Source of the DNA: Cyanobacteriota bacterium
GTDB lineage: Bacteria > Cyanobacteriota > Cyanobacteriia > PCC-6307 > Cyanobiaceae
Reading direction: 5' to 3'
Assembly (NCBI GenBank): GCA_046052125.1
Contig: JBJOMY010000001.1
Coordinates: 160,001-224,000 of the forward strand
DNA length: 64,000 nucleotides
Shown here piece by piece: positions 1 to 22,262 of the stretch (position 1 is its first letter; each line of letters begins with the position of its first letter). The notes under the pieces were generated by a model, which had not been told where the DNA came from, did no database searches, and saw only the letters and a list, made by a program, of their open reading frames with translations. The translations under genes were made by a program, and so were the position numbers.

Positions 1-841
1 GCACGGCATCGGGCACCTGGAAGGCAGCGCGAAAGCCCTTCGAGAAGGCCTCGAGTTGAACAGGGGGCAGTGCCTTGATCTGCTCCTGTAGCCGGGTGAT
101 GGCAACGGGCTGGAGAGGAGCATCGGCTATCCCAGAACTGGGATGGTTGGCTCCGTTGGCTACGGGTGCCGGGGTGGTGGCAGCAGCTGCGCTGCTCACC
201 TGGCGTTGCTGCTTGTCGTAGAGCGCCAGGCCAAAGGGATTCCCGAAGGTCATCAGCGCCCGCTTGGTGGCATCGGTTTCGGCTTCCTTGAGCGCCGATT
301 CATGGGCAAGGCCGAGATCGGCATCGATGCCATGGCCGGCGCCGGAGCCCTCACGGATCAGGGTGCGATTGCCGGCGGTGATCGTGATGCGCACGCGGGC
401 GATGTAGGTCACGCCCCAGCCGCTTTTGCGATCACGGCCCGCGCCCTTGGCGCCGATCTGGCGCTCGTGTTCGGCCACGCAGCGGCTGATCAAGGTGGAG
501 CGTTCCCAGCCGTCAAAACCAAAGATGCGGTTGGCTTCTGCAATCACCTGCCAGCCCTCGAGGTAGCTCACGCGGCTGCGGCCCTGTTCCCGTTGGCGCA
601 CATTGGCGCGATCGAGGGGAGCAGAAAGAGCTGTGATCTGTCGGGCAGTGAATCCAGCTACGGAGCACAAGGCGCCGTCGTCGTTGGGCGTTGTTTGTGG
701 AGGCGAAGGTGGAGCAGCGGCCTGCTCCTGGCTCAGGGTTTCCCTGAGCAGCTGAAGCGTGGAAGGTGGCCGATTGGATGCGCTGCGTCGAACCACCGGG
801 GTGGCGTGATTGGTGGCTGTTGCTGTGGATGTGATGGCCAT
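1..841 (-). CDS. Rad52/Rad22 (Sak/DdrA-like) single-strand annealing protein, 3' end outside window
   Basis: Not in the ORF track because it runs off the edge. Manual translation from ATG 841 gives MAITST...VSYLEGWQVIAEANRIFGFDGWE...REGSGAGHG...AHESALKEAETDATKRALMTFGNPFGLALYD, the Rad52-family signature. Confidence 0.9.
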   Translation of the reverse strand, partial: MAITSTATATNHATPVVRRSASNRPPSTLQLLRETLSQEQAAAPPSPPQTTPNDDGALCSVAGFTARQITALSAPLDRANVRQREQGRSRVSYLEGWQVIAEANRIFGFDGWERSTLISRCVAEHERQIGAKGAGRDRKSGWGVTYIARVRITITAGNRTLIREGSGAGHGIDADLGLAHESALKEAETDATKRALMTFGNPFGLALYDKQQRQVSSAAAATTPAPVANGANHPSSGIADAPLQPVAITRLQEQIKALPPVQLEAFSKGFRAAFQVPDAV

Positions 842-924
842 GGTGAGGAAAAAGAGTGTGTGTGGAGTGAGAAGGACGTGGGGCCCGCCACTGCAAAACC
901 CCCTATCGAGGCCCCCTGTGGGGG

Positions 925-1578
925 CTAGGTGATTGACCAGTGGCGGCGTTTGATGAGGCGTGCACCGGGGACGGCGGTTGAGGAGAGGGAGAAGGCGAGG
1001 TGAGCGGCTTCTGCTTTGGGGAGGCCTGAGGTGGCGGTAGAGATCAAGGAGCGAATGCGGGCCTTGATGGAGGTTTTGTTGGGCGTGGTGGTCGTTTGGG
1101 TGGTCAGCAGATCTGGGGGGAGAAGATCGGGGTCATCGATCTCGATGGCTTCTGTGCTGCGGGAGGAGAGGTGGTGATCGGTGAGGTGATGGGACGTGGC
1201 GGATGGATCGAGGCGGGAGAGCAGGTGGATGAGGGTGGATTCGAGGGCGTCAGCGCGGTTGTCTTCTCGCTTGGCCAGGGCTGAGAAGCGCTTGGATTGC
1301 GAGGAGTGGTAATTGGCTTCTGCGCGGAGGCGCTCAATTACCCAGCAGGTGGCATCGGCCTTGCGGATGAAGGCCTCACGTTTGTTGTCTTCCAGGGCCA
1401 GAGATTCCTCGAGATCGGCGATGGCGAGGGCACGTTCGTCGTCGTCCTCGGTATCGAGGCGTTCGGAGAGGCAAGCAATCCAATGGGTTTCGGCCTGGAG
1501 ATCAGTGCCGAGCTCCCAGAGAGTGGGCAACTGCGGGGTGGAATCCGGGGCGGTGGTGACAGGAATGGCAACAGACAT
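925..1578 (-). CDS. Siphovirus Gp157-family protein
   Basis: Helical protein 'KADATCWVIERLRAE...KRFSALAKREDNRADALE' and C-terminal 'PNKTSIK...VPGARLIKRRHWSIT'; adjacent to an SSAP gene, as is typical. Confidence 0.75.
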   Translation of the reverse strand: MSVAIPVTTAPDSTPQLPTLWELGTDLQAETHWIACLSERLDTEDDDERALAIADLEESLALEDNKREAFIRKADATCWVIERLRAEANYHSSQSKRFSALAKREDNRADALESTLIHLLSRLDPSATSHHLTDHHLSSRSTEAIEIDDPDLLPPDLLTTQTTTTPNKTSIKARIRSLISTATSGLPKAEAAHLAFSLSSTAVPGARLIKRRHWSIT

Positions 1579-1647
1579 GGTTGTGCGGAGGATGAGTGGA
1601 TTGGAAGGTGGGGCCCCGGCGAGCGAGCAGAGCCCCATCGCAAGCGG

Positions 1648-2142
1648 CTACGCCGCTGCCGCTGCCGCGATCTCGATCACTTCGATCGGGATGGCTGAAC
1701 GCCGGCTGAGGCGGCGGGCCTGATCCACCAGGGAGGCGGTGCCGCGAGAACCGGGGAAGGCGACAACGAGCAGGCCAGCGCCCAGGGGGAGAGCAGCGGT
1801 GAGATCGAGGGAGCGCTCGAGCATCTGGCGATTGCGGATTGGGCCTGCGGCGCGGCCGTGCTGCTGCCAGGCCGCGGGGCAGGCGATCTGCGGCCAGCCG
1901 AGCTGATCGGCAGCTGAGGCAATGGCCTGATCAGCCCCGCGGGCGCCGCCATGGAAGAGCGATTGCACCAAGCGGCCATGGGAGGCGCTCAGCAAGTGGG
2001 CGGCGATCAGCTCGGAGGGCCAAGTGAGATCACGGCCACCACCGGCCACGATCACCAGCTGGCCACTGCCAGGGAGAAACAGCGAGCTGAATAAAGAAGC
2101 AGCAGGCGGCGCCAATGCGGCGGCCTGGGTGAGTGAAAGCAT
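1648..2142 (-). CDS. SLOG-family protein (DUF2493/YspA-like)
   Basis: Motifs 'VIVAGGGRD', 'HGGARGAD', 'HGRAAGPIRNRQML', 'AFPGSRGT'. Confidence 0.85.
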   Translation of the reverse strand: MLSLTQAAALAPPAASLFSSLFLPGSGQLVIVAGGGRDLTWPSELIAAHLLSASHGRLVQSLFHGGARGADQAIASAADQLGWPQIACPAAWQQHGRAAGPIRNRQMLERSLDLTAALPLGAGLLVVAFPGSRGTASLVDQARRLSRRSAIPIEVIEIAAAAAA

Positions 2143-2219
2143 GGAAAGAAAAAAGAGCGCAGAAGGATTTCTTTCAAGGGCTCCGGCAACAGCGGAGGCC
2201 ATCCCTTGATCACCTCTTC

Positions 2220-2241
2220 ATTGTATCAGTACGGACGTACT
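2220..2241 (-). promoter_or_regulatory. Extended -10 (TGnTACAAT) overlapped by LexA-type SOS box AGTAC-N4-GTACT
   Basis: AGTACggacGTACT at 2228-2241; the minus strand reads TGATACAAT at 2228-2220; upstream of the SLOG-Gp157-Rad52 genes. Confidence 0.7.
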
Positions 2242-2460
2242 ATGCCCAGGTGAGACGGCGCCATGGGCGCCCTCTTCTTGAATCTTTACGGCGCTAGTTC
2301 TGGGTGCCTGTGGTATCAGCAGTGCGGCAACTCTTCTAAGTGCCGAGCTTTCATTGAGTGCCCGTAACGCAGCTACCACAGCCGCTTCCAGGAGCTTGCG
2401 GCAGGCCCCAAAGCGCTGGGCCACCGCGGCCGCGGGAGGACGCTGTGCGTAACGAACCAA

Positions 2461-2594
2461 CGCCACACTTCCCGGCGGCGGCAAGGACACAAGAGATCAC
2501 GCGAGCGCCAGGGCCGGTGTCCGCGCAGCGGCTACACCGGCTCGCGAAGCCCTGGCGCCGTGTGACATCCTGAATTCCCTGCCGCCGGGTGGCG
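2461..2594 (+). other. Long imperfect rod-shaped inverted repeat
   Basis: Nested helices 2461-66/2589-94, 2472-79/2581-88, 2497-2514/2549-65, 2515-20/2534-39, 2521-24/2528-31. Confidence 0.7.
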
Positions 2595-2699
2595 ACTTAA
2601 CCACAACGCATCGCCCGATCAACTCAGTCAGCAATCACCGACAGTGATCAGAACAAGACGGTCTGTGTGAGAAGGTCGCACTAACGGTGCTCTCCTGAC

Positions 2700-2903
2700 T
2701 TGCCTGCCCTTGTTGCTTCCGCCGCGTGGCCATTGCAGTTCTTTGCACTGTTTATCGTGCTCACGATCTATGGCGCCATGTGGAAAGGCGCTCAAGACCA
2801 AGGGCAACGCGGTTGGGTGGTTGCTCTGATCTGGGCCGTTGCTTTCCAGCTCGGGCTACAAGCCCTGAAAGAACTCAATCTCCTGCTCTATCACAGCCAC
2901 TAA
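2700..2903 (+). CDS. Small hypothetical membrane protein (2 predicted TM helices)
   Basis: 67 aa with two hydrophobic stretches; TTG start. Confidence 0.5.
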   Translation: MPALVASAAWPLQFFALFIVLTIYGAMWKGAQDQGQRGWVVALIWAVAFQLGLQALKELNLLLYHSH

Positions 2904-3176
2904 GAGCAGAACGATTTGATTCCGGCAAAGATCATGAAGAAGCCTGTAGCCAGGCTGCTGCACTCCGCTGCAGATCAGCCACGGCGGTAAGGGCTTGATT
3001 GATACCACTCGCGACGAAGCACCGAGCTCAACTAGCAACGGGGCAATGAGTCTTGCCAAGACAGCCCTAAGACAGCGAGGCATGAGTGGTCGGTGAACCT
3101 CAAAAGAGTGATCAAGGAGGACTAGCGCACCCCCCCCCGGCGACTTAATAATTTCTTCTCCTTTTGCGAGTGTCCC

Positions 3177-3371
3177 TTGAACAGCACTCCCTCGTTCCCT
3201 GCAGACCGGCAGAGCGCAACGCCAAGGCCATGCACACGGCGCCCGCAACGCATCACGATCACTGTCCCCTGGCAGCTGTACCAACGCCTTGTGGAGATCA
3301 GTGATCAGCAGGGCCGCTCCCTCTCGAATCTCGCCTGCTACTGGCTGGAGCGGCAGTCAGGGAATAGCTGA
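3177..3371 (+). CDS. Ribbon-helix-helix (CopG/Arc-like) regulator
   Basis: 'PQRITITVPWQLYQRLVEISDQQGRSLSNLACYWLE' fits the RHH pattern. Confidence 0.8.
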   Translation: MNSTPSFPADRQSATPRPCTRRPQRITITVPWQLYQRLVEISDQQGRSLSNLACYWLERQSGNS

Positions 3372-3385
3372 TTCGACAGAAGCAG

Positions 3386-3440
3386 CCAGAAGCGAAGCGT
3401 TGAGCAAGGCCGATTTCTTTGCTCAACGCTCGCTTACTGG
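3386..3440. other. ~21-bp stem-loop with two single-base bulges
   Basis: ccag-aagcg-[a]-agcgttgagcaa ... ttgctcaacgct-cgctt-[a]-ctgg. Confidence 0.65.
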
Positions 3441-3742
3441 AGGCAACGCAGATCGTTCAGAAGTGTCCGCATGAGCGCCTATGGCTGCCTGGCCCCACTC
3501 CAACAACTGCCATGCAATCACTGAACATGAAAAAGCAGGGCTGCCGGCCCTGCCTGATCTCCCATGGAGCCATGACCCTCGATCACAGGCTATCGAGATC
3601 TTGTGCATCGAACATCCAGACGAACATGTCCTGTAAGAATCTTCAGGCCAGGTGTCGGATGATGACGCAAAACTGAAGAAACGTCCCGCATCCAAAAGCA
3701 ATCTAGATTCCGCATCAGACTGAAGCCAGAGAGGAGCATCCA

Positions 3743-4255
3743 ATGCTTCACTTGGCTCATCACCTCCATCCACTCGAGACCTTCGACGAACATCGGATTG
3801 TTCTCAGTGTCATCCATTACTTCTCTGAACACTTCTCCGCACCAATCACGATCCCTTCCCTGAGCGGGCAGTTGGGGATTTCGTTACTGCATATCGAGAC
3901 CGCCTTTGATCTCTACAAAGGCACGACCGCCAACGAAGCTCTTCTGGAATACCGCCTCAATCGCTTATGTGATGTGATGTCTAGGGATCCATCACGGGAG
4001 ATCGGCAAGCAGATCAACGAGTGTGGCCTGGCATTTGGCTCCGCTCCCGCCCGGATAGCGTTTTGCCGTACCAACCAGCAATTCATTGATCACTTTGGGA
4101 TCGACCTTGTCGAGTATCACCAGCAATGCTTCCTGGCAGAAGCTGCTCGCTTGAGCAGGCAGTCAGTGCCAGGGGATGAGGCACTGAACTCAGAAGTCTT
4201 TGGAGACGATCCCCGCAGGAATGTGCATCCCACTCGATTTCACAGGCAACACTGA
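3743..4255 (+). CDS. Stand-alone AraC-like HTH protein
   Basis: 'YFSEHFSAPITIPSLSGQLGIS...EYRLNRL...INECGL'; paralogous to 19031-19480. Confidence 0.7.
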   Translation: MLHLAHHLHPLETFDEHRIVLSVIHYFSEHFSAPITIPSLSGQLGISLLHIETAFDLYKGTTANEALLEYRLNRLCDVMSRDPSREIGKQINECGLAFGSAPARIAFCRTNQQFIDHFGIDLVEYHQQCFLAEAARLSRQSVPGDEALNSEVFGDDPRRNVHPTRFHRQH

Positions 4256-4428
4256 ACGGCGTACAGCCCCAAGACAACCTCCAGCAGTTCATCGGGCACT
4301 ACCGCCACGCGCTGCAACTCAGGCACTCAGCTGCGCCCCTCCGCGATGGCGTGCTCAGGGTCCATCGCCCGCACGGGCTGAATTCTGCAGCGCTCCTGAT
4401 CGCAGAAGAACATGGAAAACGCTGCCAT
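4240..4428 (-). pseudogene. Possible small gene interrupted by in-frame TGA
   Basis: MAAFSMFFCDQERCRIQPVRAMDPEHAIAEGRS*VPELQRVAVVPDELLEVVLGLYAVQCCL*; internal stop at 4327-4329. Confidence 0.3.
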
Positions 4429-4592
4429 GCCTGGGCTCTAGAGGAGAAATGGGGTGGGCTGCGGTGTGAGGAGTGCAGCCCAGTGCATCGCTGTGATGAC
4501 GGCCAGGGGGTGATGACCTCTCCTGACGCGTGAAGCGAGCACCGCTCGGTCATGGCCCAGGTGGCGGGTCAAGCGCAAGAGCGATCAGAGCA

Positions 4593-6257
4593 TCAGTGCT
4601 GCTCAATCGGGCTGATCGGCTCGAGCACCTCCAACAGCGCCTGCAATTCCGCCTGAGGATCACGCTGCAAAAGCGCGACCACATCCGGTCCGGGCTCTAC
4701 GGCTTGTGCGATGGCCCCGCCCACAGGTCCCGGTAGTTCCCCCACCAGCTGCAACGCCATCGAGGCAATGGAGCCATCCACGGCCATCAGCGCCAGGCTG
4801 CTCAGCCACTCCAACGCCAAACGGCACGCGGGATCCTGCAGGGCGAGGCAGCCGAGCAGGTCACGGCACTCGGGTGCATGAATGAACAACCGCAGGGCAC
4901 GGCGCTCGGCCCGTTGCTGAGCGCTCGCATCACTCGGCACAAACACATCTGCGGCCGTGATGCATTGACGCTCAGCTGGTGTTCCGGGCTTGCCCTGCAA
5001 GGCCTGCTCCAGCCGTTGTTCTGCTGAGCGCCGCAACACGCCTTCAGGCAGCTGCTCGAGCAAGGCATAACCCTCGAGCTCCACCGCTTGCAAGGTCTCG
5101 AGCGCGGGCGAACCGGCAGTGATCAGGAGCGGAGCTACTAGACGCTCCAACCGCCATTCCAGCCAATGCCGAGCTGAGGTGATCAAACCCTCCACAGCCG
5201 TTGGCCCCTGAGCCCGGAGCAAGCCGTCGGCGTCCTGGCCCTCTGGCAACTGCACCACCGAGGCACTCAACCCACCGGCCACCAGCTGTGGCTGCAACTG
5301 TTCAAGCAGCTTCTCCGTAGCGGCCTGCCCCGCGCCATCGCCGTCGAGGGCAATCAACAGGTGCTTCATCCCATGGCGCCTGAGGAGCTGGAGCTGCAGT
5401 TCCGACACGCTCGTGCCCAGGCAGGCCACCGCATGGGTGAAACCAGCCTGGTGAAGCTGGATCACATCCAGCGGGCCTTCCACCAGCAACGCTGTGCCTT
5501 GCTTGCGGATCGCCTCTGCGGCTTGATCCAGGCCAAACACCAACCCATTGCGTTGGAACAGCAGGTCTCCTGAGCTGTTGCGGTATTTGGGTACCTGGTT
5601 GCCCATAGCCCGGCCGCAAAAGCCCACGGTCTGGCCGGATGGATCGTTCAGTGGGATCGTCAGCCGGCCGCCGGCAAATCCCAGTTGCCACGTGCGCGCC
5701 GTCTCTGGGCTGATGCCACGGGTCTGGAGGTAATCCGCTCCCTCGCCGCCTTGCTCCAGTTCCTGCATCAGAGCCTGATGAAACTGCTGACGCTGCTCCG
5801 TGCGCTGCGCCATCAACTGGCGTCGTTCGCGCCACTCCTGCTCAAAGCGCGCCTGCGCCTCGGGATCACCCTCCGCCACGCTCACGCCGGTGCGGCGCGC
5901 CAGCTCGAGCACCGCTTCTTGAAAGCTCAGGCCCTGCCGGTCCTGCAGCCAGCCGATGGCGTCGGTGCCCTTTCCGCACACAAAGCAATGCACGCGGTTA
6001 CGCATTGGGCTGACGGATAGCGACGGATGGCGATCGTCATGCCAGGGGCAACGGGCCACAAACTCCCGCCCCGCCTTTTTGAGCTCCGAGGGCCCAAAGA
6101 GATCCGTGATCTGGGCCCGCTCGCGCACGCTCTCGAGCACCGCCGGCGTGAGCAGCCCAGCCGGGCGCCCCGAAGGGTGCCCACTGGGTGTGCGGTGGGT
6201 CGCGCCAGCAAACACCCGATGAAAAGCGGCCGTGCCGCTGGCTTTGCCGTTGCTCAT
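4593..6257 (-). CDS. dnaG: DnaG-type DNA primase (CHC2 zinc finger + TOPRIM), element-encoded
   Basis: 'CPWHDDRHPS...HCFVC', 'KYRNS', 'VEGPLD', 'ALDGDGAG', 'QDAD'; ATGA overlap with the helicase stop. Confidence 0.93.
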   Translation of the reverse strand: MSNGKASGTAAFHRVFAGATHRTPSGHPSGRPAGLLTPAVLESVRERAQITDLFGPSELKKAGREFVARCPWHDDRHPSLSVSPMRNRVHCFVCGKGTDAIGWLQDRQGLSFQEAVLELARRTGVSVAEGDPEAQARFEQEWRERRQLMAQRTEQRQQFHQALMQELEQGGEGADYLQTRGISPETARTWQLGFAGGRLTIPLNDPSGQTVGFCGRAMGNQVPKYRNSSGDLLFQRNGLVFGLDQAAEAIRKQGTALLVEGPLDVIQLHQAGFTHAVACLGTSVSELQLQLLRRHGMKHLLIALDGDGAGQAATEKLLEQLQPQLVAGGLSASVVQLPEGQDADGLLRAQGPTAVEGLITSARHWLEWRLERLVAPLLITAGSPALETLQAVELEGYALLEQLPEGVLRRSAEQRLEQALQGKPGTPAERQCITAADVFVPSDASAQQRAERRALRLFIHAPECRDLLGCLALQDPACRLALEWLSSLALMAVDGSIASMALQLVGELPGPVGGAIAQAVEPGPDVVALLQRDPQAELQALLEVLEPISPIEQH

Positions 6258-7954
6258 AGGCACTCCACCCCCGGATAGAGATCGCTGCCGATGAACAACT
6301 TGCGGGCGTTATCGGCCTCCAAGTAGCAGTGGCCGCGGTCCATGCGGATCATGGTCTTGCTGAAGTCGTTCTCGCCGGTGGTCTGGCCGTGACGACATTT
6401 GCCGTGGTGCACCTCCAACACGCCGGGTTGGGGTTGGCTGAATTCATCCACCTTGGGCCTATCGATCAGCCACACCGCTGAGGCATAACGCTCGAGCTCA
6501 GAGGTCCCCGCCAGGTGGGAGACATCCGGGCCGGTGGGATTGCCGTAGGCACCGCGGTTGAGCTGCGCGATGACGAACACGTCGAGTTCACAGCAGCCGG
6601 CGATGGCTTTGATGGCTGTGGCCCGGGCGGCCAGCTCTGCGGTGGTGTTACTCCCGAAACCCGCGGTGGGCCCCATGGCGTGGAAGTGATCCAGAAACAC
6701 CGCCGAGAGGTTGGGGTTGGCGCTCTTGCAGTCCTCCACCATCGCCGCCAGCTCTTCCACCGTGGCGGCGAATTGGCTCTCGTAGAGCACCTTGCCCATG
6801 CGCTCGCCATTGGGGGCAATGCCGGCGGAGAACTGCGCCTCAAGCTGCTGGAGACGCTCCAGATCACGGCCCTCGATCACCTCACCACGGCCCTCCAGTT
6901 CGTTAGCGGAGTAACGGGATGAGAACACCCCACTGGCCTTGCGGCAGTAATTAGCGAGCAGCCGTGCACCGATCGCTCGGCGGCTCAATTCGCACGACAG
7001 CACAAGCACCGAGGCGCCGTTAAAGGCCAGGCCCATCGCCGCTGCAATGCCCACGGTGGTTTTGCCCACACCCGATCGAGCGGCCAACACCCAGGTGCTG
7101 TCGCCAGTCCCAGGGATCACGCCACCGCGCATGTCGATATCCAGCGAGGGAATCCCCGTTGAGATCGGCTTGGGGCGTTGGTCGGCGGGCAGAGAAGCCA
7201 GCGCGAGGCATTCGCGGCCGGCATCGCTCGCCGTGCACACCTGGAAGCTCCGGCGGTGTCGGCCGGCCGTGATCGCCGTGGCCTCGTTCAACAGTTGGCG
7301 GCAGCTCTCGAGTTCGCCATCGATGCCGCAGTCGATCTGCTCGCGCGCCAGGAGCTTGCGCAGCCCTGGATAGAACAGCGCCCTGGCCTTGGCGCTCTGA
7401 AAAAGACGGCAGGCGATTTTGAAGTCCAGCTCCGGGTGGATCAGCCCGTCATCTCCCCAGGCGATCACCTCAGACAGCGCCTCCTCCATCTGGAGAAGTG
7501 AGCCGCGGAAGCGTCCCTCAAAGGCACGCTGGCGCAGATCCTCACGGATGGCGTTGGCGTTGAGCACATCAATGTCACGCCGGCCGCGGAACAACTCATC
7601 GATTTCCAACGCGAGAGCGCGCAGGCCCGGCTGGGTCCAGATCGAGCCCGGCACCACCTCGTCGAAGCGCAGGCCGATGGCGCGGCGGAATGTTCCCCAG
7701 CGTTCGCGTTGATCGTCGGTGCCCACCAGGACGGCAGCCAGGAGGTTCTTCTCGTGCTCGGCGAGTGAGTGATCAGCAGGCACCGTTGGCACCTCAGCCG
7801 CCATCAGTCCTGCTGCGGTCTCGATGAACAGCCCCTGATCGATCATCCGCTGGATCAGCGCCGGGTCAAACGCGCCGGGGATGGTGGTCTTGAGCTCCTC
7901 GTTGCCGGGGTCGTTGTTGCCGGCACCGGTATTGGCGTTGGGGTTGGTGGTCAT
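6254..7954 (-). CDS. DnaB-like replicative helicase, element-encoded
   Basis: Walker A 'AARSGVGKT', 'SCELS', Walker B 'VFLDH', 'IAQLNR', 'GTSELERYA', 'KCRHG'. Confidence 0.9.
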   Translation of the reverse strand: MTTNPNANTGAGNNDPGNEELKTTIPGAFDPALIQRMIDQGLFIETAAGLMAAEVPTVPADHSLAEHEKNLLAAVLVGTDDQRERWGTFRRAIGLRFDEVVPGSIWTQPGLRALALEIDELFRGRRDIDVLNANAIREDLRQRAFEGRFRGSLLQMEEALSEVIAWGDDGLIHPELDFKIACRLFQSAKARALFYPGLRKLLAREQIDCGIDGELESCRQLLNEATAITAGRHRRSFQVCTASDAGRECLALASLPADQRPKPISTGIPSLDIDMRGGVIPGTGDSTWVLAARSGVGKTTVGIAAAMGLAFNGASVLVLSCELSRRAIGARLLANYCRKASGVFSSRYSANELEGRGEVIEGRDLERLQQLEAQFSAGIAPNGERMGKVLYESQFAATVEELAAMVEDCKSANPNLSAVFLDHFHAMGPTAGFGSNTTAELAARATAIKAIAGCCELDVFVIAQLNRGAYGNPTGPDVSHLAGTSELERYASAVWLIDRPKVDEFSQPQPGVLEVHHGKCRHGQTTGENDFSKTMIRMDRGHCYLEADNARKLFIGSDLYPGVECL

Positions 7955-14817: not shown

Positions 14818-14844
14818 CCCTGGGTCACGGCCCGGGGCTTTTTG
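14818..14844 (+). terminator. Probable intrinsic terminator
   Basis: ccctggg-tcacgg-cccgggg followed by cttttt. Confidence 0.45.
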
Positions 14845-14915
14845 CTGCAAGCCAACAGCGAGAGGTCGTTGATGACCTGGTCGATGGCTACGACCCGGAA
14901 AGCAACTCAATTGCA

Positions 14916-15077: not shown

Positions 15078-15197
15078 GCAATCACCGCCCAACCAAAACC
15101 CCCCGAGCAGAGCCCGAGGGTGATGGATCAATCACGCTGCAAGTCCATGGACTGAAGCGGCTGGCGTTGGCGCCTGGGGTCACGTCACCTCAGCGAG

Positions 15198-16289
15198 CTA
15201 AGGCCCATCCCTGGTGAAACAACGACTCACAAAGGGGGATGTCATGGCTCGCAACAGGGCGCTGTAGCTGAGCTGGTAGCGCTGTTCATCACCTACCTGT
15301 GGCTTCACGCCCAGGCATCCCACGACCAGATGATCACTGGAGGCGCCGCGGATAACGACACCATTTGGTGGGCTTAACCCTTGTGGATCAACATCTTGTT
15401 CACCCAGCGCTAGCAGCACTCGATATTCAGAACCTGGCGCGGTTGAGGTTGGCTGTGGCTCTGGCTTTGGGATTGCTGAGGCAAAGCTTGTGCGTTGGCG
15501 CTCTCCCCAGGGTTGGCTTGGTTTCAACTTGGCCTCGATCACTTCAGCCACCAACGTGATGGCATTGGTGAATAGGCCAGGGATAGCTGTGCGCCTCAGG
15601 GGCTCTCGGCCGAGCAGTAGGGCCTCCCCCAAGCGCAAGTGATTGAGGCGCCCGGGCTCTCCTCCGGCGGCCAACCAGGGCAAATTTGCAGAATTCCCGC
15701 CAGAGCACCAAGGCAAACGCACACCAAAGCGACGCTCCAAGGCGTTCGTAAGCCGTGAGAGCTCAGCCATGTTCAGCGCATCGGGGACAACCCCGTGCTG
15801 ACAGCCCAGATTGGCGCCGATTCCCATCAAGCGCAGATTGGGGAGGGCCAGGGTTTGTTGCGCCAGCGCCTCGAGATCCATTGCCAGGATTCCTTCACGC
15901 AAGTCGCCCAGCTCCACCATCAACAACACCCCATGGCAAATTCCTTGCCGCTGGGCCGCTGCAGACAATGCCCGCAACACACTCAGTTCGCTGTTGCAGC
16001 TGATGGCTGCGTGGGTAACCACGCGTTCAACCTGAGTGAGCATTGGGGAGCGAATCAAGAGCATGGGTACGCCAACCCCAGCCGCTGCAAGGGCTTCGAT
16101 GCTCTCGATTCGGGATTCACCGATCGAGGCCACCCCGGCATCCACCCAGGTGTGCACGATTTCGGGAAGGCCCAGCGTCGCCTTGCTCACACCCGTCACG
16201 GCAATCCCCTGCAGGGCCAGACGTCCCACAAGGGTTTTGGCGTTGTGGTGCAGTCGCCCGAGGTGGATCTCGAGCCGCGGTGCACTCAC
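15198..16289 (-). CDS. Alanine/ornithine racemase-family PLP-dependent enzyme
   Basis: 'GVSKA' PLP lysine, 'MVELGDLREG', 'SGGNS', 'LRLGEALLLG', 'GASSDHL'. Confidence 0.9.
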   Translation of the reverse strand: MSAPRLEIHLGRLHHNAKTLVGRLALQGIAVTGVSKATLGLPEIVHTWVDAGVASIGESRIESIEALAAAGVGVPMLLIRSPMLTQVERVVTHAAISCNSELSVLRALSAAAQRQGICHGVLLMVELGDLREGILAMDLEALAQQTLALPNLRLMGIGANLGCQHGVVPDALNMAELSRLTNALERRFGVRLPWCSGGNSANLPWLAAGGEPGRLNHLRLGEALLLGREPLRRTAIPGLFTNAITLVAEVIEAKLKPSQPWGERQRTSFASAIPKPEPQPTSTAPGSEYRVLLALGEQDVDPQGLSPPNGVVIRGASSDHLVVGCLGVKPQVGDEQRYQLSYSALLRAMTSPFVSRCFTRDGP

Positions 16290-17431
16290 GTGCTCAGGAG
16301 TCGTTCAACGCTGAGTTCCGGGAAGGCACGCACCACCATCGCCACCAGGCTTGATCCGGGGCGGCTGACTGCATCGGTGACCGGAATGTCGAGCTCGGCC
16401 TCGTAGAGGGCGATGGCAGCCGTGAGCTCAGCATCATTCATCCCTTCATGGTTGATGGTCAGACCGATCACACGGGTGGGCGCAAAGGCCTCAATGAGCC
16501 GAATTTCACTGGCTGGCGAGGGCATCGGCAGAAAGGGAAAATCACTGAGACAGCGTCGAGCCGGCGCATGCTGCAGGATCACGGCCTGCGGCTGGCAGCC
16601 GCGCAGGATGAAACTTGAGGAGAGATAGGCGGGGTGGCTGAGGGCACCCTGGCCTTCGATCACGATCACGTCGGGCTGCTCACTCTCGTAGGCCTCCACA
16701 ACCGCCGCCTCAACTTCGCCAGAGCAAAACTGCGATGGGATGGCATCCAGGGGAACGCCAAAGCGCCCACCCTGGATCAGCCCTGTCTGGCCTGTGTTCA
16801 CAAGCACCGCCTTGATGCCGTGGGCCTGAAGCGCCTGCACCAGCAGGGTTGCAGTGGTTCGTTTCCCGATCGCTCCATCAGTACCCAGCACAGCGATGCG
16901 CAGGCAGCGCGCCCGGCTGATTGATCCATCGAACAGCTTCAGATCCTTGAGGGGGGCCGGTCGTCGCACATCGCGGATCGTGACCTGATGGCGGGCAGCC
17001 ACTGCCAAGAATTCCGGATCGTCAGTCAGAAATTCGCGCATGCCACTCACGAGATTGAGGCCTGCGGCCATCGCATGTCGCAACACCTGCCGGTCCTCCA
17101 CACGGAAGAGACCATCGGCAGGGGCCATCCCGTAAATGAAGGTGTCTGGAACGGCGCCGGGCAGATCTTTGCCTTCTTCCAGGCTACAGACAATTGGAAT
17201 GCCCCTGAATACGCCATCAAGCACCATGCCGGCATCCATACCGGCGCACTCACTGTCAATCACAGCGCTGATTGTGTAGGCCTCACAGTGACGAACCAAC
17301 CCGTGAGCTGTTTTACCGTCGGGACCAGCGAAATGACCTTCGCAGTAAACAATGGCCGTTGATCGCACGGTTGGAATCAACCGGTGCATGGCGGCGGAAT
17401 TCAGATCAATGATCTGAGTTGGAAATGACAA
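16286..17431 (-). CDS. DUF1611 family protein (DgcN-like)
   Basis: 'GKTAHGL', 'GTDGAIGKRTT', 'TGQTG', 'IEGQGALSHP'; start may be the ATG at 17389. Confidence 0.9.
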   Translation of the reverse strand: MSFPTQIIDLNSAAMHRLIPTVRSTAIVYCEGHFAGPDGKTAHGLVRHCEAYTISAVIDSECAGMDAGMVLDGVFRGIPIVCSLEEGKDLPGAVPDTFIYGMAPADGLFRVEDRQVLRHAMAAGLNLVSGMREFLTDDPEFLAVAARHQVTIRDVRRPAPLKDLKLFDGSISRARCLRIAVLGTDGAIGKRTTATLLVQALQAHGIKAVLVNTGQTGLIQGGRFGVPLDAIPSQFCSGEVEAAVVEAYESEQPDVIVIEGQGALSHPAYLSSSFILRGCQPQAVILQHAPARRCLSDFPFLPMPSPASEIRLIEAFAPTRVIGLTINHEGMNDAELTAAIALYEAELDIPVTDAVSRPGSSLVAMVVRAFPELSVERLLST

Positions 17432-17797
17432 AAAAGCCAGGCCAATCCCGCAGCACAGTTGTGGCGGCTGGGTGACATGGGTGCCTTCACTCTAGGCAGG
17501 GTTGGCCACAGAAGGGGGTGTCGATCAGTCAGGCGCACGAGGTGAGAACAAGCTGAAGGGCTGATCTCTTGCCCCGCTGAACGACCCCGCCCACGGTTGA
17601 GTGAAGACTGTTGGAGCAGGGGCCTGCAGTCAGCGGTGCTTCTAGATCTGCTGCTGGGGTGGGGTATCTGCCATGGGTGGCGCCTCCCTGGGTTGGTGAT
17701 CACAGATTCGCTCCGGCCAGTGCGCTGAGCAATCCGTTTTTTCACGCATTGCCTTGCCCGCAGAACAGGAGCAGCGTGGTTGGTTTGGCCTTGTTGT

Positions 17798-18106
17798 TCA
17801 GCGCCAAAGCACCATCCGCGGGGGCTGGGGTGGATGCCATTGCGGGGCGCAGGGTGCCCAGCCGTCAGCCCTGCGTTGACGCCACAACTCAATGGCCTTC
17901 TCACGGCTGAGTCGTTGGCGCCGCTTGAGCAACGGCGCGGTTTGGTCGCTCAGCCACTCACCACTGGTGACCTCGAGCTCCTGCTGCGAACGTCTCCAGA
18001 TCACCGGCTTGAAATGGAGCACCTGGCGGCCGTCACTCAACCAGGCCTCAGCCGGGTTGGAAGGGATTCGCTGCCCTTGATCTTGTTGGGCATTGGGCAC
18101 CCACAC
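17798..18106 (-). CDS. DUF1651 family protein
   Basis: 'WLSDGRQVLHFKP...PLLKRRQRLSREKAIELW...GW'. Confidence 0.75.
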   Translation of the reverse strand: MWVPNAQQDQGQRIPSNPAEAWLSDGRQVLHFKPVIWRRSQQELEVTSGEWLSDQTAPLLKRRQRLSREKAIELWRQRRADGWAPCAPQWHPPQPPRMVLWR

Positions 18107-18109
18107 GCG

Positions 18110-18403
18110 TCAGCCCACCTCCGGCGCCCAACCCCGCTGGCGGGTCATGTCGTCGGTCCAGCCCTGGCAGCGGCTCAGGAGGTGATCACCATGAGCAATC
18201 AGGCCCTGATGCAGCTGGCAAGTGAGCAGCGGAATGCACTGCGCTCCGGCGTGGTGCCTGAACCAATGGCAGGTCATGCAGACCTTGCGACTACGACTGG
18301 CTACCAGCACGTCGCCATCGAGGTAAGGCCAGCCCTCGCAGTCGGCTGCGGCCTCAACCGCAGCCGTCACTGAGCGGACTGACCTTGGACGGGAGAGCGC
18401 CAT
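18110..18403 (-). CDS. Small Cys/His-rich hypothetical protein
   Basis: 'CMTCHWF...TCQLHQGLIAHGDHL...CQGW'; putative metal binding. Confidence 0.75.
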   Translation of the reverse strand: MALSRPRSVRSVTAAVEAAADCEGWPYLDGDVLVASRSRKVCMTCHWFRHHAGAQCIPLLTCQLHQGLIAHGDHLLSRCQGWTDDMTRQRGWAPEVG

Positions 18404-18420
18404 CACCAAACTCCTGCAGT

Positions 18421-18435
18421 CGTACACCTGTACTA
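18421..18435 (-). promoter_or_regulatory. LexA-type SOS box
   Basis: Minus strand TAGTACAggTGTACG, 17 bp upstream of ATG 18403. Confidence 0.65.
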
Positions 18436-18481
18436 GCAGGGATTGGGTGAGTTGGCTCGGTCGCTGAGCAGCGCCTTTCAC

Positions 18482-18511
18482 AAAAGAACCCCGGGCCATG
18501 GGCGCCCGGGG
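18482..18511 (-). terminator. Intrinsic terminator
   Basis: ccccgggc/gcccgggg stem followed on the minus strand by ttctttt. Confidence 0.55.
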
Positions 18512-18587
18512 CCTTTGAGCCAGCGGGTCCTTGGCTGCCCGCTTCTCCACGGTCATGGCTTAGGCGAATGCTCCATGGCAAGGGGTG

Positions 18588-18603
18588 TCGGAACCCTTTG
18601 AGG
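18588..18603. promoter_or_regulatory. 16-bp motif TCGGAACCCTTWGRGG, copy 3
   Basis: tcggaaccctttgagg, 16 bp before TTG 18620. Confidence 0.6.
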
Positions 18604-18619
18604 CCTCACGCCAACTCCT

Positions 18620-18946
18620 TTGCTCGCCTTCTTTCAACGCATCACTTCCTTCATCCGTTCGCTGGTCCAGCGGGAGGCCAATTGCTCCTCAGATCTCCGC
18701 GGCCTGCCCTACCAACAGGACCATGCCCTGGCTGCCTTTGAGCAGGGTGACTGGCTCGCTGAACTGGAGCTTCTCCAGCTCGCCAACGCCCTGCAGCGCA
18801 GCGCGATCAGCCGTGGCGGCTATGACGGCCGCGCGTTTGATCTGATGGTCGCCATCGCCGATGCTCTCGAGGCTGATCACGGCTGGAGTTTTGAGCAAGC
18901 CGATGGCTGGCTCGAGCGAATGGGGCTCTGGGACGAGGAGTTCTGA
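18620..18946 (+). CDS. Hypothetical helical protein
   Basis: 108 aa with protein-like composition and codon usage. Confidence 0.6.
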   Translation: MLAFFQRITSFIRSLVQREANCSSDLRGLPYQQDHALAAFEQGDWLAELELLQLANALQRSAISRGGYDGRAFDLMVAIADALEADHGWSFEQADGWLERMGLWDEEF

Positions 18947-19030
18947 GCGCACCGGATGCCAAATGGAGCGACCATTTCGTCCGGTTTGATCCGCACCCTG
19001 CTCTACGCGCCCCTGGCGCGTTTCACCAGG

Positions 19031-19480
19031 TCATGCTGAGAGCACTAATGCTTCAGCAGTGGGATGATCTTTGCGAAACAAGCGATCATCGGCTGCGCGT
19101 CGGCAGGTCCGCATGAACAGTGGCATCTCAATGCCAAACGCCTGCTCAAAAAGAGCTACAACGCCTGCGGTCTGGCTCAGGCCACAGGCCGCAATGGCAT
19201 GCCCGAGCCCCTGCCGGGGCTGATCGGTGAGTGCGGCAAACAGCTTGTTGAGGCGGTGCTCCTGCAGGGCTTGCGTCAGGCTGATGCCACGCACTTGCTC
19301 AAAACTGAGATCAAGGCATTGTTTGCTGATGCCTAACAGAGCGGGCAGTTGACCGAGATCGATCGACTCTTGAAAGTGGAGCGCAAAGTACTGACGCACT
19401 GCTGCAATAATCTGCATTGGGCTCTCGCAAGCCAGGGGAACTACAGATGCACCTTGGCCTAAAGATCGCTCAATGATCAT
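19031..19480 (-). CDS. Stand-alone AraC-like HTH protein
   Basis: 'YFALHFQESIDL...LGIS...EHRLNKL...IAACGL...FEQAFGI'. Confidence 0.75.
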   Translation of the reverse strand: MIIERSLGQGASVVPLACESPMQIIAAVRQYFALHFQESIDLGQLPALLGISKQCLDLSFEQVRGISLTQALQEHRLNKLFAALTDQPRQGLGHAIAACGLSQTAGVVALFEQAFGIEMPLFMRTCRRAADDRLFRKDHPTAEALVLSA

Positions 19481-19731
19481 TCACGTCTCCTGCACCGCAG
19501 GGAGCGATGCGACCGAAGCCCATGCTGATGAGCTGGATATCAAGACGCTAAGCCATTGTTGAAATCGCCGCATTCCTCATCACAAGTTCATCTAGCGACA
19601 TCTTGCGACACATACCAACCCAAACACGGTAAATCTGTGGTGATTCAGTGCGTTACTGGCTGCAGATCCCTACACCACCATGATGGCCTTGGTCGCCTGC
19701 GGCTTCTGTTGGGCGTACCGAGGGGCATGAG

Positions 19732-19755
19732 GCGTCGCCAAAGCGACGCTTTTTT
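19732..19755 (+). terminator. Intrinsic terminator
   Basis: gcgtcgc-caaa-gcgacgc-tttttt. Confidence 0.75.
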
Positions 19756-19980
19756 CGTGACCGGTTTCCAACCCAACGAGTGGCCTCCGCTCAGGCCGGT
19801 GGACGATCCAGTAGGCGTCCACCCGCTGGTGTAGAGTGAATTCGATTCAACGACCTCTCTCAGGCGGGTTTCTCTTTCAAGCGGCGAGTCTCTCGAGCTT
19901 CTGGCTTCGGTATTTCTCCACTCGACCAGTCACTTTCTTCAGGGCTATCAGCGAATCGGCTACATAATTCTGCTTATTGA

Positions 19981-20253
19981 ATGACAATTTACGTTGGCAA
20001 CCTCTCCTTCGATGCCGAAGTGGAGGACCTTCAACACCTCTTTGCTGAGTACGGCTCCGTCAGCAAGTGCAGTCTGCCGCTCGATCGCGAAACAGGTCGC
20101 AAGCGTGGCTTCGCCTTTGTCGACATGGCCGACGCCAACGCGGAAAGCAAAGCCATTGCTGACCTTCAGGACGTGGAGTGGATGGGCCGCTCGATCCGGG
20201 TCAATAAGGCCGAGCCTCGCCCCGCACCTGCATTCGCCAACAGCCGCTGGTGA
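19981..20253 (+). CDS. rbp: RRM RNA-binding protein (Rbp family)
   Basis: RNP2 'IYVGNL', RNP1 'RGFAFV', 'WMGRSIRVNKA'. Confidence 0.95.
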   Translation: MTIYVGNLSFDAEVEDLQHLFAEYGSVSKCSLPLDRETGRKRGFAFVDMADANAESKAIADLQDVEWMGRSIRVNKAEPRPAPAFANSRW

Positions 20254-20442
20254 ACTCGTTCCCAACAGCTGCAGCGCTGTTGCGCTCCAATGGCCGGCCC
20301 TGCGGGTTCGCTGTGTGGAGCTCAGCCAGGGATGTCAGCGGTGGCAATGCCCAGCCTGAGGACAACACAACACCGATGGGCGAACCGTCACCGGCGCCCT
20401 CAGGACATGACCCTCAATGGATTCCAACACTCTGAACAACAC

Positions 20443-20586
20443 ATGACTCAATCTTCCGGACGCTTTGGTTTTGTTGAATTCGCAGAAACCTGGAATGGCC
20501 GCCTCGCCATGCTCGGTTTCGTGATCGGCCTCGGCACTGAGCTGCTCACTGGCCAGGGAATCCTGTCCCAGATCGGCCTCGGCTGA
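20443..20586 (+). CDS. hli: High-light-inducible protein
   Basis: 'AETWNGRLAMLGF...ELLTGQGIL'. Confidence 0.95.
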   Translation: MTQSSGRFGFVEFAETWNGRLAMLGFVIGLGTELLTGQGILSQIGLG

Positions 20587-20685
20587 AGCGGCGAGCAACT
20601 CTCCCCCCGAAGAGGTGTTCAAGAGCGTTGAGCTCTTGAACGCGTGCGTTTGCGACCGGACGATCTCCGGGATTTGAATCTTCAG

Positions 20686-20711
20686 ACCCCTGGGCATTGC
20701 TCAGGGGTTTT
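20686..20711 (+). terminator. Terminator hairpin between hli and integrase
   Basis: acccctgggca-t-tgctcaggggt followed by ttt. Confidence 0.6.
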
Positions 20712-20741
20712 GTTTTGGTTGTTTTGGTGGCATGGCTTGCT

Positions 20742-22082
20742 TCAACCAAGGCCTGCTGCCTTGAGCTTCATCGCCATCTCCAGCAGTTCCGGTGTGATGC
20801 CTTCCGGTAGCGCAGGAGGTGTCGAGAACACAGACGGAGCCTGCTCAAAGGGCTGTATCCGGTTCGCAGCAACGCCACCACCGCTCCGACGCCGCTGCAG
20901 CGACTCCTTCCGGCGGCTTGAGCTCAGCCAGCGCAGGTAAATCCGGCGGTGCACATCGAGCCCATGGCCCATCCAACAGGCCATGTCGTCGTCGAAGGCA
21001 TCAGCGGTTTCAGATGAGGTGGCGCAGCGAATCGCATAGGCGTGCCTGAGGTCATAAGGACGCACCCAGTCCATGCCGTCACCGTCCGCCACTGGGGCCC
21101 AAAGCTTCTGCAGGCCCTTCCGCTGAAACTCCTTGTAGAGGGAGTTGGAGACAGCCACGTTGTTCACGGCGATCTTCACGCCGGACACTTCCGCAAAGCG
21201 CACCTTCCAGCGGGCATTGAGCTGACCGTGGAACTGCTCCCAGTTCGCCCGCAGGCCATAGCGCTCCACCCAGTCGTCCGGAACGGCCGGTGCGAAGTGC
21301 TCGCCGGTCTTGGTCTTCATGTCACCGGGGATGCTGATCCAGCCCTGGCTGTCGATCCCCTCGGCATGCCACAGCTCATGAGGCCTGAGGCCATAGGTGG
21401 CGATGCAGCCAAACACCCACTGGTGAAACGGCTCTAGGCGGTCGAGCCAGTGCTGGAGATCCTCGTCGGATGGAATGACGCGTACCCGCATCGAGGAGGC
21501 CTTGCGGATCTTCTCGGCCGCCCCTTTCGGGCGCATGTCGCGCAAGCGTTGCAGTACAGCGGTGAGATCCATCAGGCCGCTGCGATGGATCTGGGAAAGG
21601 GTCTCGATCCGCCGGTTGAAGCTCTTGAGCTGAAGGCGTGGATCGTGCTCCAGGACCCATGCCTGCAGCTTCTTCGGATCCACAGGCCCTCGGAACCGGG
21701 CGATCCGTTTGTTCAGGTCGTTAATCACGTGGGCACGACTGCCCTCCTTGCAGATCCTGAGCTTGATGTCGCCGATACAGGCTTCGGCAAGGGCAGACCA
21801 GTCGCTGCCTGGAAGAGCCGGTTGCTCTGATGGCGCAGCAGGCCAGCGTCCCTGGCGGTGGCCGTGGATGCATAGGTCCCGCGCCTCCTCGATGTCATCC
21901 CGATTGCACCAACGCATCGGTTTGAGCGAAAACTCACCGAGCTTTCTGCCTTCCTCCATCTCGCGCACGTAGATGAACGGGCTACCTGGATGGCGCCTGA
22001 TCCGAAATCGGGAGTGCCGGACTTTGAGCTCATGCACACACTGGTCCCAGAACGGCAGGCTTGGAGGACGGCTCTCAGGCAT
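20742..22082 (-). CDS. Tyrosine recombinase / integrase
   Basis: Catalytic motifs 'YGLRPHEL' (R), 'MKTK' (K), 'YDLRHAYA', 'WMGH...IY'; adjacent to the tRNA 3' end. Confidence 0.92.
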   Translation of the reverse strand: MPESRPPSLPFWDQCVHELKVRHSRFRIRRHPGSPFIYVREMEEGRKLGEFSLKPMRWCNRDDIEEARDLCIHGHRQGRWPAAPSEQPALPGSDWSALAEACIGDIKLRICKEGSRAHVINDLNKRIARFRGPVDPKKLQAWVLEHDPRLQLKSFNRRIETLSQIHRSGLMDLTAVLQRLRDMRPKGAAEKIRKASSMRVRVIPSDEDLQHWLDRLEPFHQWVFGCIATYGLRPHELWHAEGIDSQGWISIPGDMKTKTGEHFAPAVPDDWVERYGLRANWEQFHGQLNARWKVRFAEVSGVKIAVNNVAVSNSLYKEFQRKGLQKLWAPVADGDGMDWVRPYDLRHAYAIRCATSSETADAFDDDMACWMGHGLDVHRRIYLRWLSSSRRKESLQRRRSGGGVAANRIQPFEQAPSVFSTPPALPEGITPELLEMAMKLKAAGLG

Positions 22083-22120
22083 GGGATCCGTGCGACGCAG
22101 GACCCAGTGAGTGTTCCCCA

Positions 22121-22148
22121 AAAACGTGCAAAGTGCTTTGCACGTTTT
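22121..22148. repeat. Perfect 13-bp inverted repeat upstream of integrase
   Basis: aaaacgtgcaaag-tg-ctttgcacgtttt. Confidence 0.85.
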
Positions 22149-22230
22149 GGCTACAAGCAGCCTCAAGTCGTCACAAGTGGCTCACACTGGTCCCGGCTTT
22201 GGAATCCCTGAAAACCCAGGCCCAGACAGC

Positions 22231-22253
22231 AAAAAGCCCCGCCGAAGCAGGGC
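22231..22253 (-). terminator. Terminator downstream of tRNA-Met
   Basis: Minus strand gccctgc-ttcg-gcggggc-ttttt. Confidence 0.8.
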
Positions 22254-22262
22254 ACAGAGCAA

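Follow-up and report, generated by a model that had tools for sequence, protein, structure and literature searches.

An island of about 25 kb lies beside a tRNA-Met gene in the genome of a freshwater picocyanobacterium (Cyanobacteriota bacterium, 2.64 Mb; from here: G000). It raises the question of which kind of genetic element has settled there and how it might replicate, control its genes and spread. We addressed this question for the stretch C1 160001-224000 of G000 (from here: the window; 64,000 nt). To our knowledge, picocyanobacteria are regarded as free of plasmids and largely also of prophages. It has proved difficult to demonstrate inducible lysogeny in them, and tycheposons have been proposed as their main vehicle of gene flow. 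We consider it probable, if by no means certain, that the element in the window (copy A) is one of a family of phage-derived, tycheposon-like integrative elements or replicons of Vulcanococcus-type picocyanobacteria.

Positions refer to the window unless C1 or C3 is stated; G007, G008, G014, G021, G023, G024 and G048 are labels for the genomes of relatives, and B and C denote the sibling copies of copy A. The open reading frames (ORFs) of the island part of the window were scanned with Pfam, PHROGs and NCBIfam, and tRNA genes were called by ARAGORN, which reported a single tRNA, tRNA-Met(CAT). An Rfam scan of positions 1-23000 returned tRNA only, and PADLOC, run on 25 proteins, gave domain-level matches for DnaG and sigma factors and nothing further. 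The features are compiled in Table 1.

A conserved backbone at three tRNA genes

The element comprises an integrase and, behind it, some 20 kb of conserved backbone in which certain slots hold variable cargo. When the island ORFs were searched against the genome by tblastn, the entire backbone turned up in syntenic form at two more places, as copy B (C1 ~711-738 kb) and copy C (C3 ~25-45 kb). The backbone is thus present three times in the genome, at tRNA-Met (A), tRNA-Lys (B) and tRNA-Pro (C), and smaller SLOG-Gp157-Rad52 fragments occur elsewhere. The same slots hold different cargo: the racemase/DUF1611 pair in copy A, an SBF transporter and a P-type ATPase in copy B, and LigB, pirin, CDGSH, HxlR and a Na/H exchanger in copy C. 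The pair in copy A, which possibly serves D-amino-acid metabolism, has a counterpart with 91-92% identity in the island that G008 carries at the same tRNA. Defence cargo was noticed in the distal parts of the siblings, namely a ThsB-type TIR protein in copy C (L046:12875-13315) and a DUF4391/SNF2 helicase/type III restriction-like cluster in copy B (L049:10829-19655).

Pairwise ratios of nonsynonymous to synonymous substitution rates (dN/dS; A-B and A-C) ranged from 0.07 to 0.36 for 14 backbone genes, with 0.19-0.21 for Rad52, 0.09-0.18 for Gp157, 0.10-0.15 for the SLOG gene and 0.11-0.24 for the LuxR-like gene. The long phosphoesterase ORF has the sole stop found in the backbone, within its N-terminal extension. 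Three independent decays to one and the same gene set are unlikely, and from these comparisons the backbone genes look like working genes.

The preliminary description had placed an integrase at the 3' end of the tRNA-Met gene, and this was confirmed. The 474-aa ORF in question starts 97 nt from that end. It had no match in Pfam (E up to 10), NCBIfam or PDB profiles, even when used as a four-member profile. Its AlphaFold model, computed from a 30-sequence alignment, reached a predicted local distance difference test score (pLDDT) of 85, and Foldseek returned 36 matches at E <= 0.001. The matches displayed were tyrosine recombinases (XerA, Tn1549 Int, lambda Int, Cre, IntI and XerH) and the protelomerase TelA. 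All of 30 homologues share R233, K258, R346 and H373, and nearly all have Y382; in our reading of the alignment these residues form the catalytic set. More than 1250 homologues exist in picocyanobacterial data, some labelled integrase by their sources and none with a Pfam domain. By its modelled fold, the ORF is shown to be a divergent tyrosine recombinase at the tRNA-Met 3' end.

The sibling copies are bounded by direct repeats. Copy B sits between tRNA-Lys and a 45-nt copy of it and has an integrase that is 30% identical to that of copy A, and copy C is enclosed by two perfect 42-43-nt tRNA-Pro copies (C3 14549-14591 and 47919-47960), 33.3 kb apart, with a different integrase at its far end. 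A comparison of all 45 tRNA and tmRNA genes with the genome detected partial 3' copies only for tRNA-Lys(TTT) and tRNA-Pro(TGG), two each. In G007, the backbone is found between tRNA-Pro and a 45-nt repeat, with a 355-aa protein of the A type (89% identical), iterons of the A type and a cation-efflux cargo gene 96% identical to that of copy A; in G021, 44-48-nt repeats of the tRNA-Met 3' end are present. Because of these sites, the family can be said to insert at tRNA 3' ends by at least three types of integrase. The genes for the DUF1651, 148-aa and 108-aa proteins adjoin the integrase in G007, G008 and G021, and the block 19031-20697 is located elsewhere and inverted in G007 and G021.

A discrete, integrase-linked element with cargo, as proposed in that description, is therefore upheld. 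Its left boundary had been set at position 1; yet the Rad52 ORF begins 79 nt to the left of the window, and homologous distal genes extend at least ~5 kb farther. Synteny with G007 is lost near C1 126.4 kb and regained at tRNA-Met, so that the variable region measures ~56 kb here versus ~27 kb in G007, whose integrase is 94% identical to that of copy A. In G023 and G024 the flanks are only ~3 kb apart, and a close integrase is absent; the best G000 matches of the genes at these near-empty sites lie elsewhere and do not help to place the left end. The 34 kb to the left of the window encode transporters, regulators, a desaturase, a PIN toxin pair and the cation-efflux gene.

No capsid, terminase, tail or type IV secretion system (T4SS) genes had been seen at first, and the searches agree. 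Only 11 of 32 ORFs had a PHROG match, none of them in the head, tail, connector or lysis categories, and there was no Pfam match to a relaxase or T4SS component among 36 ORFs and a further 28 ORFs. A phage structural module to the left, as expected of an ordinary prophage, was looked for and not found in the 34 kb. Neither PHROGs nor Pfam matched a terS, a major capsid protein or another packaging or capsid-redirecting gene; several conserved ORFs are without an assigned function.

Two neighbouring regions were noted in addition. At C1 151436-153902, 6-8 kb to the left of the window, there is a remnant of the integrase-proximal end of another element, with 167-aa-like and DUF1651-like pieces, a Kelch-like gene and a homologue of the 148-aa ORF with its own LexA-type box, and with neither an integrase nor an attachment (att) site, which points to an older tandem insertion. 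The right flank (22391-25784) consists of ordinary core genes encoding an M23/LysM peptidase (NlpD-like), TrmL and PcxA.

Table 1. Features of copy A and its integration site in window coordinates (HTH, helix-turn-helix)
Feature	Position	Strand	Evidence or remark
Rad52/Sak-type single-strand annealing protein, 306 aa	1-841 (C1 159921-160841)	-	Pfam Rad52_Rad22, E 6.7e-40
Gp157/Mu Gam-like protein	925-1638	-	Pfam Sipho_Gp157, E 9.3e-14; phrog_253
SLOG (YAcAr) domain protein; opens the recombination operon	1648-2202	-	Pfam YAcAr, E 3e-9
LexA-box-like palindrome AGTACGGACGTACT	2228-2241		26 nt before the SLOG start codon; kept in B and C
Conserved GC-rich long hairpin, edge of the recombination module	2471-2599	-	Copy alignment and folding
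AraC-type HTH (weak)	3743-4255	+	Pfam HTH_18, E 2.6e-4, below cut-off
DnaG-type primase	4593-6263	-	TIGR01391, 283.8 bits versus cut-off 283.6; 32% identity to S-CRES2 gp24
DnaB-like replicative helicase	6254-7954	-	Pfam DnaB_C; phrog_19
355-aa winged-helix protein, putative replication initiator	7990-9057	-	Structural model and covariation
Putative origin	9200-9406		AT-rich tract 9200-9251; iterons 9254-9364; inverted copy 9385-9406
Sigma-70 family factor, full-length	9477-10451	+	Pfam Sigma70_r2; phrog_351
LuxR/PedR-like C-terminal HTH protein (weak)	10512-11354	+	NF047608, E 8.8e-8; PedR, E 1.3e-4; both below cut-off
Sigma-like protein, region 2 only, 146 aa	12192-12632	+	Pfam Sigma70_r2
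Calcineurin-like phosphoesterase	12485-13906	+	phrog_284, E 8.9e-54
Two conserved genes, 144 aa and 168 aa	13834-14788	+	dN/dS 0.28-0.43 and 0.07-0.09
Cargo: Orr/alanine-racemase-like enzyme and DUF1611 (DgcN-like) protein	15198-17431	-	Pfam, NCBIfam
DUF1651 protein	17798-18106	-	Integrase-proximal, conserved
148-aa ORF	18110-18556	-	Integrase-proximal, conserved; holds CGTACACCTGTACT
LexA-box-like site CGTACACCTGTACT	18421-18434		Inside the 5' part of the 148-aa ORF
108-aa ORF	18620-18946	+	Integrase-proximal, conserved
AraC-type HTH (weak)	19031-19480	-	Pfam HTH_18, E 4.9e-6, below cut-off
RRM RNA-binding protein	19981-20253	+	RRM_1, E 4.1e-16
120-aa ORF	20335-20697	-	ORF call
Tyrosine recombinase	20742-22166	-	474-aa ORF; probable start 22082 (446 aa); fold match
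tRNA-Met(CAT), integration site	22263-22336	-	ARAGORN; conserved synteny starts here

Three further ORFs were considered. The ORF 11266-11742 was discarded as a gene since its dN/dS exceeds 1 and it contains stops in the other copies, and the ORFs 4299-4553 and 2218-2490 are doubtful genes.

Putative origin and element-encoded regulation

Iteron plasmids and phage origins such as those of RepA/pPS10 and lambda O combine tandem repeats of ~22 bp, an AT-rich tract and an adjacent gene for the cognate winged-helix protein, and iteron replicons that share a host differ in specificity. A similar layout is found in copy A: tandem direct repeats stand beside an AT-rich tract and next to the gene of a putative binding protein. 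The 23-bp unit is present in 4.8 tandem copies and one inverted copy. Copies B and C have repeats of 22-24 bp at the same position, together with the same or a closely similar AT-rich motif, and the repeat sequence differs; relatives, too, possess repeats of another sequence at this position. Different from iteron plasmids, the replicon is integrated, lies beside its own DnaB and DnaG genes and encodes no protein with a Rep-family sequence match.

The 355-aa protein is the least conserved protein of the backbone, with 66% and 50% identity to its counterparts versus ~70-96% for most others. In its structural model a winged helix is formed by residues 30-102, which reach a VIA Z of up to 10 against Crp/MarR-type domains. 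Across eight loci, the N-terminal 105 residues track the iteron type. Copy C, G014, G008 and G048 share one iteron type, and their proteins are 79-90% identical in the N-terminal and 60-83% in the C-terminal part. For copy C and G021, whose iterons differ, the values are 49% and 87%, respectively. It is mainly this covariation that supports the prediction of the 355-aa protein and the iterons as a cognate DNA-binding pair. We infer that the pair acts in replication because the gene precedes DnaB-DnaG and because a 'DNA replication protein' similarly adjoins the helicase in phage S-CRES2. The 355-aa protein was detected in 12 of 45 genomes of the genus (11 of the 21 high-quality ones), mostly at 1-3 loci, and in 14 of 201 genomes of the family, distributed over 5 of 36 genera.

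The recombination operon proposed initially, Rad52/Gp157/SLOG, is supported by Pfam matches for all three proteins, and its presumed SOS link by a LexA-type box in front of it. Upstream of the host genes recA and lexA are CGTACGCCTGTACT and GGTACAAATGTATT, and both the element and the host sites fit the 14-bp palindromic type of LexA-site consensus given for cyanobacteria in the part of the literature consulted (PMC3091678). By our own reading, ten sites of the form GTAC-N4-GTACTA exist in the genome, one at recA and nine in or beside genes of these elements. AGTACGGACGTACT and CGTACACCTGTACT are predicted LexA (SOS) sites resembling the host recA and lexA boxes.

The exact end of the recombination module common to the copies is marked by the hairpin. 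Its 125-nt block is 98-100% identical in A, B and C, versus 82-90% for the flanking genes, folds with -99.4 kcal/mol (z -3.9) and occurs in 18 of the 45 genus genomes. Neither Rfam nor 50,697 phage records contained a match. Compensatory changes affect 4 of 45 pairs, the sequence being too conserved for a covariation test.

Of the two sigma factors described before, one is full-length, and NCBIfam RpoD-type models align over its residues 49-314, all below cut-off; the other comprises region 2 only. This 146-aa protein aligns with the first 149 of 244 aa of S-CRES2 gp23 (34% identity), is 91-95% identical in B and C and evolves under purifying selection, with dN/dS values of 0.11 and 0.17. It could be a functional short sigma or RNA-polymerase-binding factor. 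The LuxR regulator and the two AraC regulators of the same description rest on weak HTH matches below cut-off, and the ribbon-helix-helix (RHH) regulator was not recovered, as no RHH protein was found in the ORF scans. The AraC-type gene at 3743-4255 belongs to a copy-specific segment (2600-4274) that is absent from B and C. The phosphoesterase probably starts near 12690: copies B and C have a stop within the N-terminal extension of the ORF, and from residue 70 onward the protein is 49% identical to S-CRES2 gp25. The nearest Atlas clusters of the 168-aa protein contain cyanobacterial and viral hypothetical proteins.

Taken together, we propose the following mechanism. The 355-aa protein would bind the 23-bp iterons via its N-terminal winged helix, open the adjoining AT-rich tract and recruit the DnaB and DnaG of the element, with the remainder of replication left to the host polymerase. 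The LexA boxes would silence the SLOG-Gp157-Rad52 and integrase-proximal operons until DNA damage occurs. The sigma-70 factor, the LuxR-like protein and the region-2-only protein may then redirect the host RNA polymerase to element promoters, as in S-CBS2, S-CRES and P-SS2. Copy A itself would be fixed in place, with its backbone genes still under purifying selection. Since particle and transfer genes are lacking, spread would need other vehicles.

Excision and replication weighed

Several observations weigh against this proposal. With respect to replication, the 355-aa model has an overall pLDDT of 53.6, its fold matches are generic (Crp, MarR, IclR) and a plasmid initiator ranks 41st (Z 7.7); the protein matched neither a Rep nor another family in Pfam, PHROG or NCBIfam. 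No polymerase, helicase loader or single-strand-binding protein (SSB) was seen in the element. With respect to movement, no copy of the tRNA-Met 3' end was detected elsewhere in the genome by exact 14-mers or blastn-short (word 7), and a Smith-Waterman att scan of C1 126-182 kb gave a best score of 25, within the range of maxima from 20 shuffled controls (23-31). Compared with B and C, copy A has a frameshift and a TAG in its distal 89-91-aa gene, and no recognisable excisionase was seen in the element. Nucleotide identity between copy A and G007 at the same site is 81-86%, as compared with 81-83% in the flanks, and this similarity between element and flanks fits long vertical residence rather than recent movement. 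Finally, the gene calls come from our own ORF picker, which is based on G+C content at third codon positions (GC3).

An initiator-DnaB-DnaG operon with iterons, which had been claimed at the outset, stands in its DnaB, DnaG and iteron parts, and the term initiator is weaker, the protein being without a family match; speaking of the element's own replisome was an overstatement. A repeat of the tRNA-Met 3' end, for which a search had been suggested, is absent from the genome. Because a distal att repeat is lacking and the distal gene is broken, the claimed excision is unsupported for copy A, which, on the same two grounds, is probably anchored in place. The 21 public runs, all of them metagenomic Logan contigs, showed no excision joint.

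Two side observations concern the integration site. At the same tRNA-Met site of G007 (C1 103.8-107.0 kb) a deletion derivative is found: its DnaB has lost the first ~57-89 codons and lies directly against the DUF1651 gene, and it contains neither the 355-aa protein nor the iterons nor the sigma block. For positions 9000-28000, metagenome run X1, which contained 96% of the probe words, gave depths of 69.6-76.7 for cargo contigs (14993-17547 and 18900-20514) and of 44.2 for the contig with integrase, tRNA and flank, a difference that strain mixtures can explain, metagenome depth being different from copy number.

The iteron-like repeats could also be operators of divergent promoters, with the 355-aa protein as repressor or activator of the sigma and helicase-primase promoters instead of half of an origin-initiator pair; any replication would then begin at another place. 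The repeats are located exactly between these two divergent operons, and both the transcription-factor character of the top fold matches and the missing Rep assignment would suit such a regulator. We nevertheless judge it distinctly unlikely. The gene is directly upstream of DnaB-DnaG, as is the 'DNA replication protein' gene beside the helicase in S-CRES2; four to five tandem direct repeats with a period of 22-24 bp stand beside a conserved AT-rich tract; and distinct specificities in co-resident copies fit replicon compatibility.

Comparison with phages, satellites and tycheposons

The preferred reading as a phage-derived, tycheposon-like element draws on similarities to cyanosiphoviruses. 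The phages S-CBS2, S-CRES1-3 and P-SS2 share with the element a replication protein-helicase pair, Rad52, two sigma factors and a sigma-(primase)-phosphoesterase block at 26-52% protein identity. For DnaB, identity is 34% with the P-SS2 helicase and 26-27% with those of S-CRES/S-CBS2, and identity to S-CRES2 amounts to 32% for the primase and 49-52% for the phosphoesterase. In S-CRES2 itself, a replication protein-helicase pair occurs together with Rad52, one sigma factor and a block of sigma, primase and phosphoesterase genes. By BLASTP the 355-aa protein aligned with S-CRES2 gp3 over 41 residues with an E of 0.047, which is not significant, and tblastn against phages gave no match. In contrast to these phages, the element is devoid of terminase, portal, capsid, tail and lysis genes, its primase has moved behind the helicase and only region 2 is left of its second sigma factor. 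At the DNA level, Megablast with the 22 kb yielded no match in the 50,697 phage records or in plasmids.

As far as the consulted part of PMC2784084 goes, P-SS2 encodes two sigma factors and an integrase and has a 53-bp attP, 36 bp of which match tRNA-Met, and islands at tRNA-Met of Synechococcus RS9917 with RAD52 and sigma genes are called relic prophages. Because P-SS2, the RS9917 islands and S-CRES2 carry it, the gene combination was already known, and the first view of an undescribed family has to be given up, all the more as tycheposons are elements of this kind (PMC2784084; bioRxiv 10.1101/2020.12.28.424599, both as far as seen). What is new by these comparisons is the persistence of the combination without particle genes. 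The backbone was not found described in the literature on tycheposons, cyanobacterial islands and phages, or Vulcanococcus prophages, as judged from titles and abstract openings, with subscription journals outside the coverage.

This kinship invites the view of a decaying S-CBS2/S-CRES/P-SS2-like prophage remnant that has lost its structural genes and is no longer a functional element. S-CRES2 has a matching gene set and, in part, a matching gene order, the similar RS9917 islands were termed relics, copy A has neither an att repeat nor an intact distal gene, and the G007 derivative has a 5'-truncated DnaB. We consider such a remnant very unlikely. Three copies have kept the same backbone without structural genes, in intact frames and with the dN/dS values given above; conservation extends even to the short sigma-like gene; each copy possesses its own iteron/winged-helix pairing; and the att repeats of the siblings are perfect.

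Tycheposons are described as cargo elements that insert at tRNAs and encode DnaB-type helicases and primases; seven sites, including Met(cat) and Pro(tgg), are given for Prochlorococcus, and the hallmark genes were induced by mitomycin C (bioRxiv 10.1101/2020.12.28.424599, as far as the preprint was available to us). The likeness is one to the preprint's description. Shared by this description are the tyrosine recombinase beside a tRNA, the DnaB-type helicase and primase, niche cargo such as ion transporters and enzymes, and the absence of capsid and conjugation genes. The mitomycin C induction has its counterpart in the LexA-type boxes, and partial-tRNA repeats and tandem arrays recur in the sibling copies, copy A being without a distal repeat. 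The differences lie in size, the tycheposon modules for integration (~1 kb) and replication (2-4 kb) comparing with a backbone of ~20 kb here, and in the added sigma factors, Rad52 operon, phosphoesterase and iteron array. In outline, this kind of cargo element is known from marine relatives; the host here is a freshwater Vulcanococcus-type cyanobacterium, and tRNA-Lys is also used.

The arrays at the three tRNAs span C1 126.4-182.3 kb (Met), C1 619.3-738.3 kb (Lys) and C3 14.5-113.3 kb (Pro), by our own sum ~274 kb or about one tenth of the 2.64-Mb genome. In tandem with B and C there are two att-bounded regions, C1 619392-691727 (72 kb) and C3 47961-113227 (65 kb), which carry an integrase, SF2 helicase, primase, TerL, sigma factors, portal, scaffold, major head protein and endolysin as well as large defence-like genes. 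S-CRES2 TerL, portal and major capsid protein queries matched only C1 665-684 kb and C3 62-75 kb, scaffold homologues are likewise confined to the two regions, and a scan of 93 ORFs recognised neither a tape-measure nor a major tail gene. The regions could be prophages or capsid-forming, satellite-like elements.

With such neighbours, the family might consist of helper-dependent phage satellites resembling phage-inducible chromosomal islands (PICI), the backbone replicating after induction and being packaged in the capsids of another element or phage. PICI-type satellites likewise have an integrase, their own replication-initiation module, regulators and a chromosomal residence (bioRxiv 10.1101/2020.12.28.424599, as far as seen). 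Such integration, replication and regulatory genes are present here and particle genes are absent, the modules are homologous to cyanosiphovirus early genes, B and C adjoin head-gene regions, and the near-invariant 125-nt hairpin could serve as a packaging or recognition site. Candidate helpers are the two head-gene regions or S-CBS2/S-CRES-like siphoviruses. We regard this as unlikely. Unlike PICI-type satellites, the element has no recognised terS, major capsid, capsid-size or interference gene and no known helper; the hairpin is unmatched in the phage records; no head-gene region adjoins copy A (window 1-22262 and 34 kb to the left); and pattern scans of IMG/VR with DnaB and the 355-aa alignment confirmed no relative, a weak result as the method requires shared peptide words.

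The idea can be extended to an integrated, SOS-inducible iteron replicon of phage origin whose three initiator-iteron pairs, united in one chromosome, represent compatible 'incompatibility groups', with a private sigma programme and a life as a satellite of the head-gene-only elements in the same tRNA arrays. To this scheme we attach little probability as well; if true, it would mean a multi-partite parasitic hierarchy in picocyanobacteria.

As phage-derived, tycheposon-like elements, the members of the family represent a much larger version of tycheposons in freshwater and brackish relatives, and they offer a putative pair of origin and initiator, sigma factors of their own and a predicted SOS switch. 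Should the origin work, picocyanobacteria, which are hard to transform, would gain a native replicon for genetic tools, and there would be a system to study how several related replicons coexist in one small genome.

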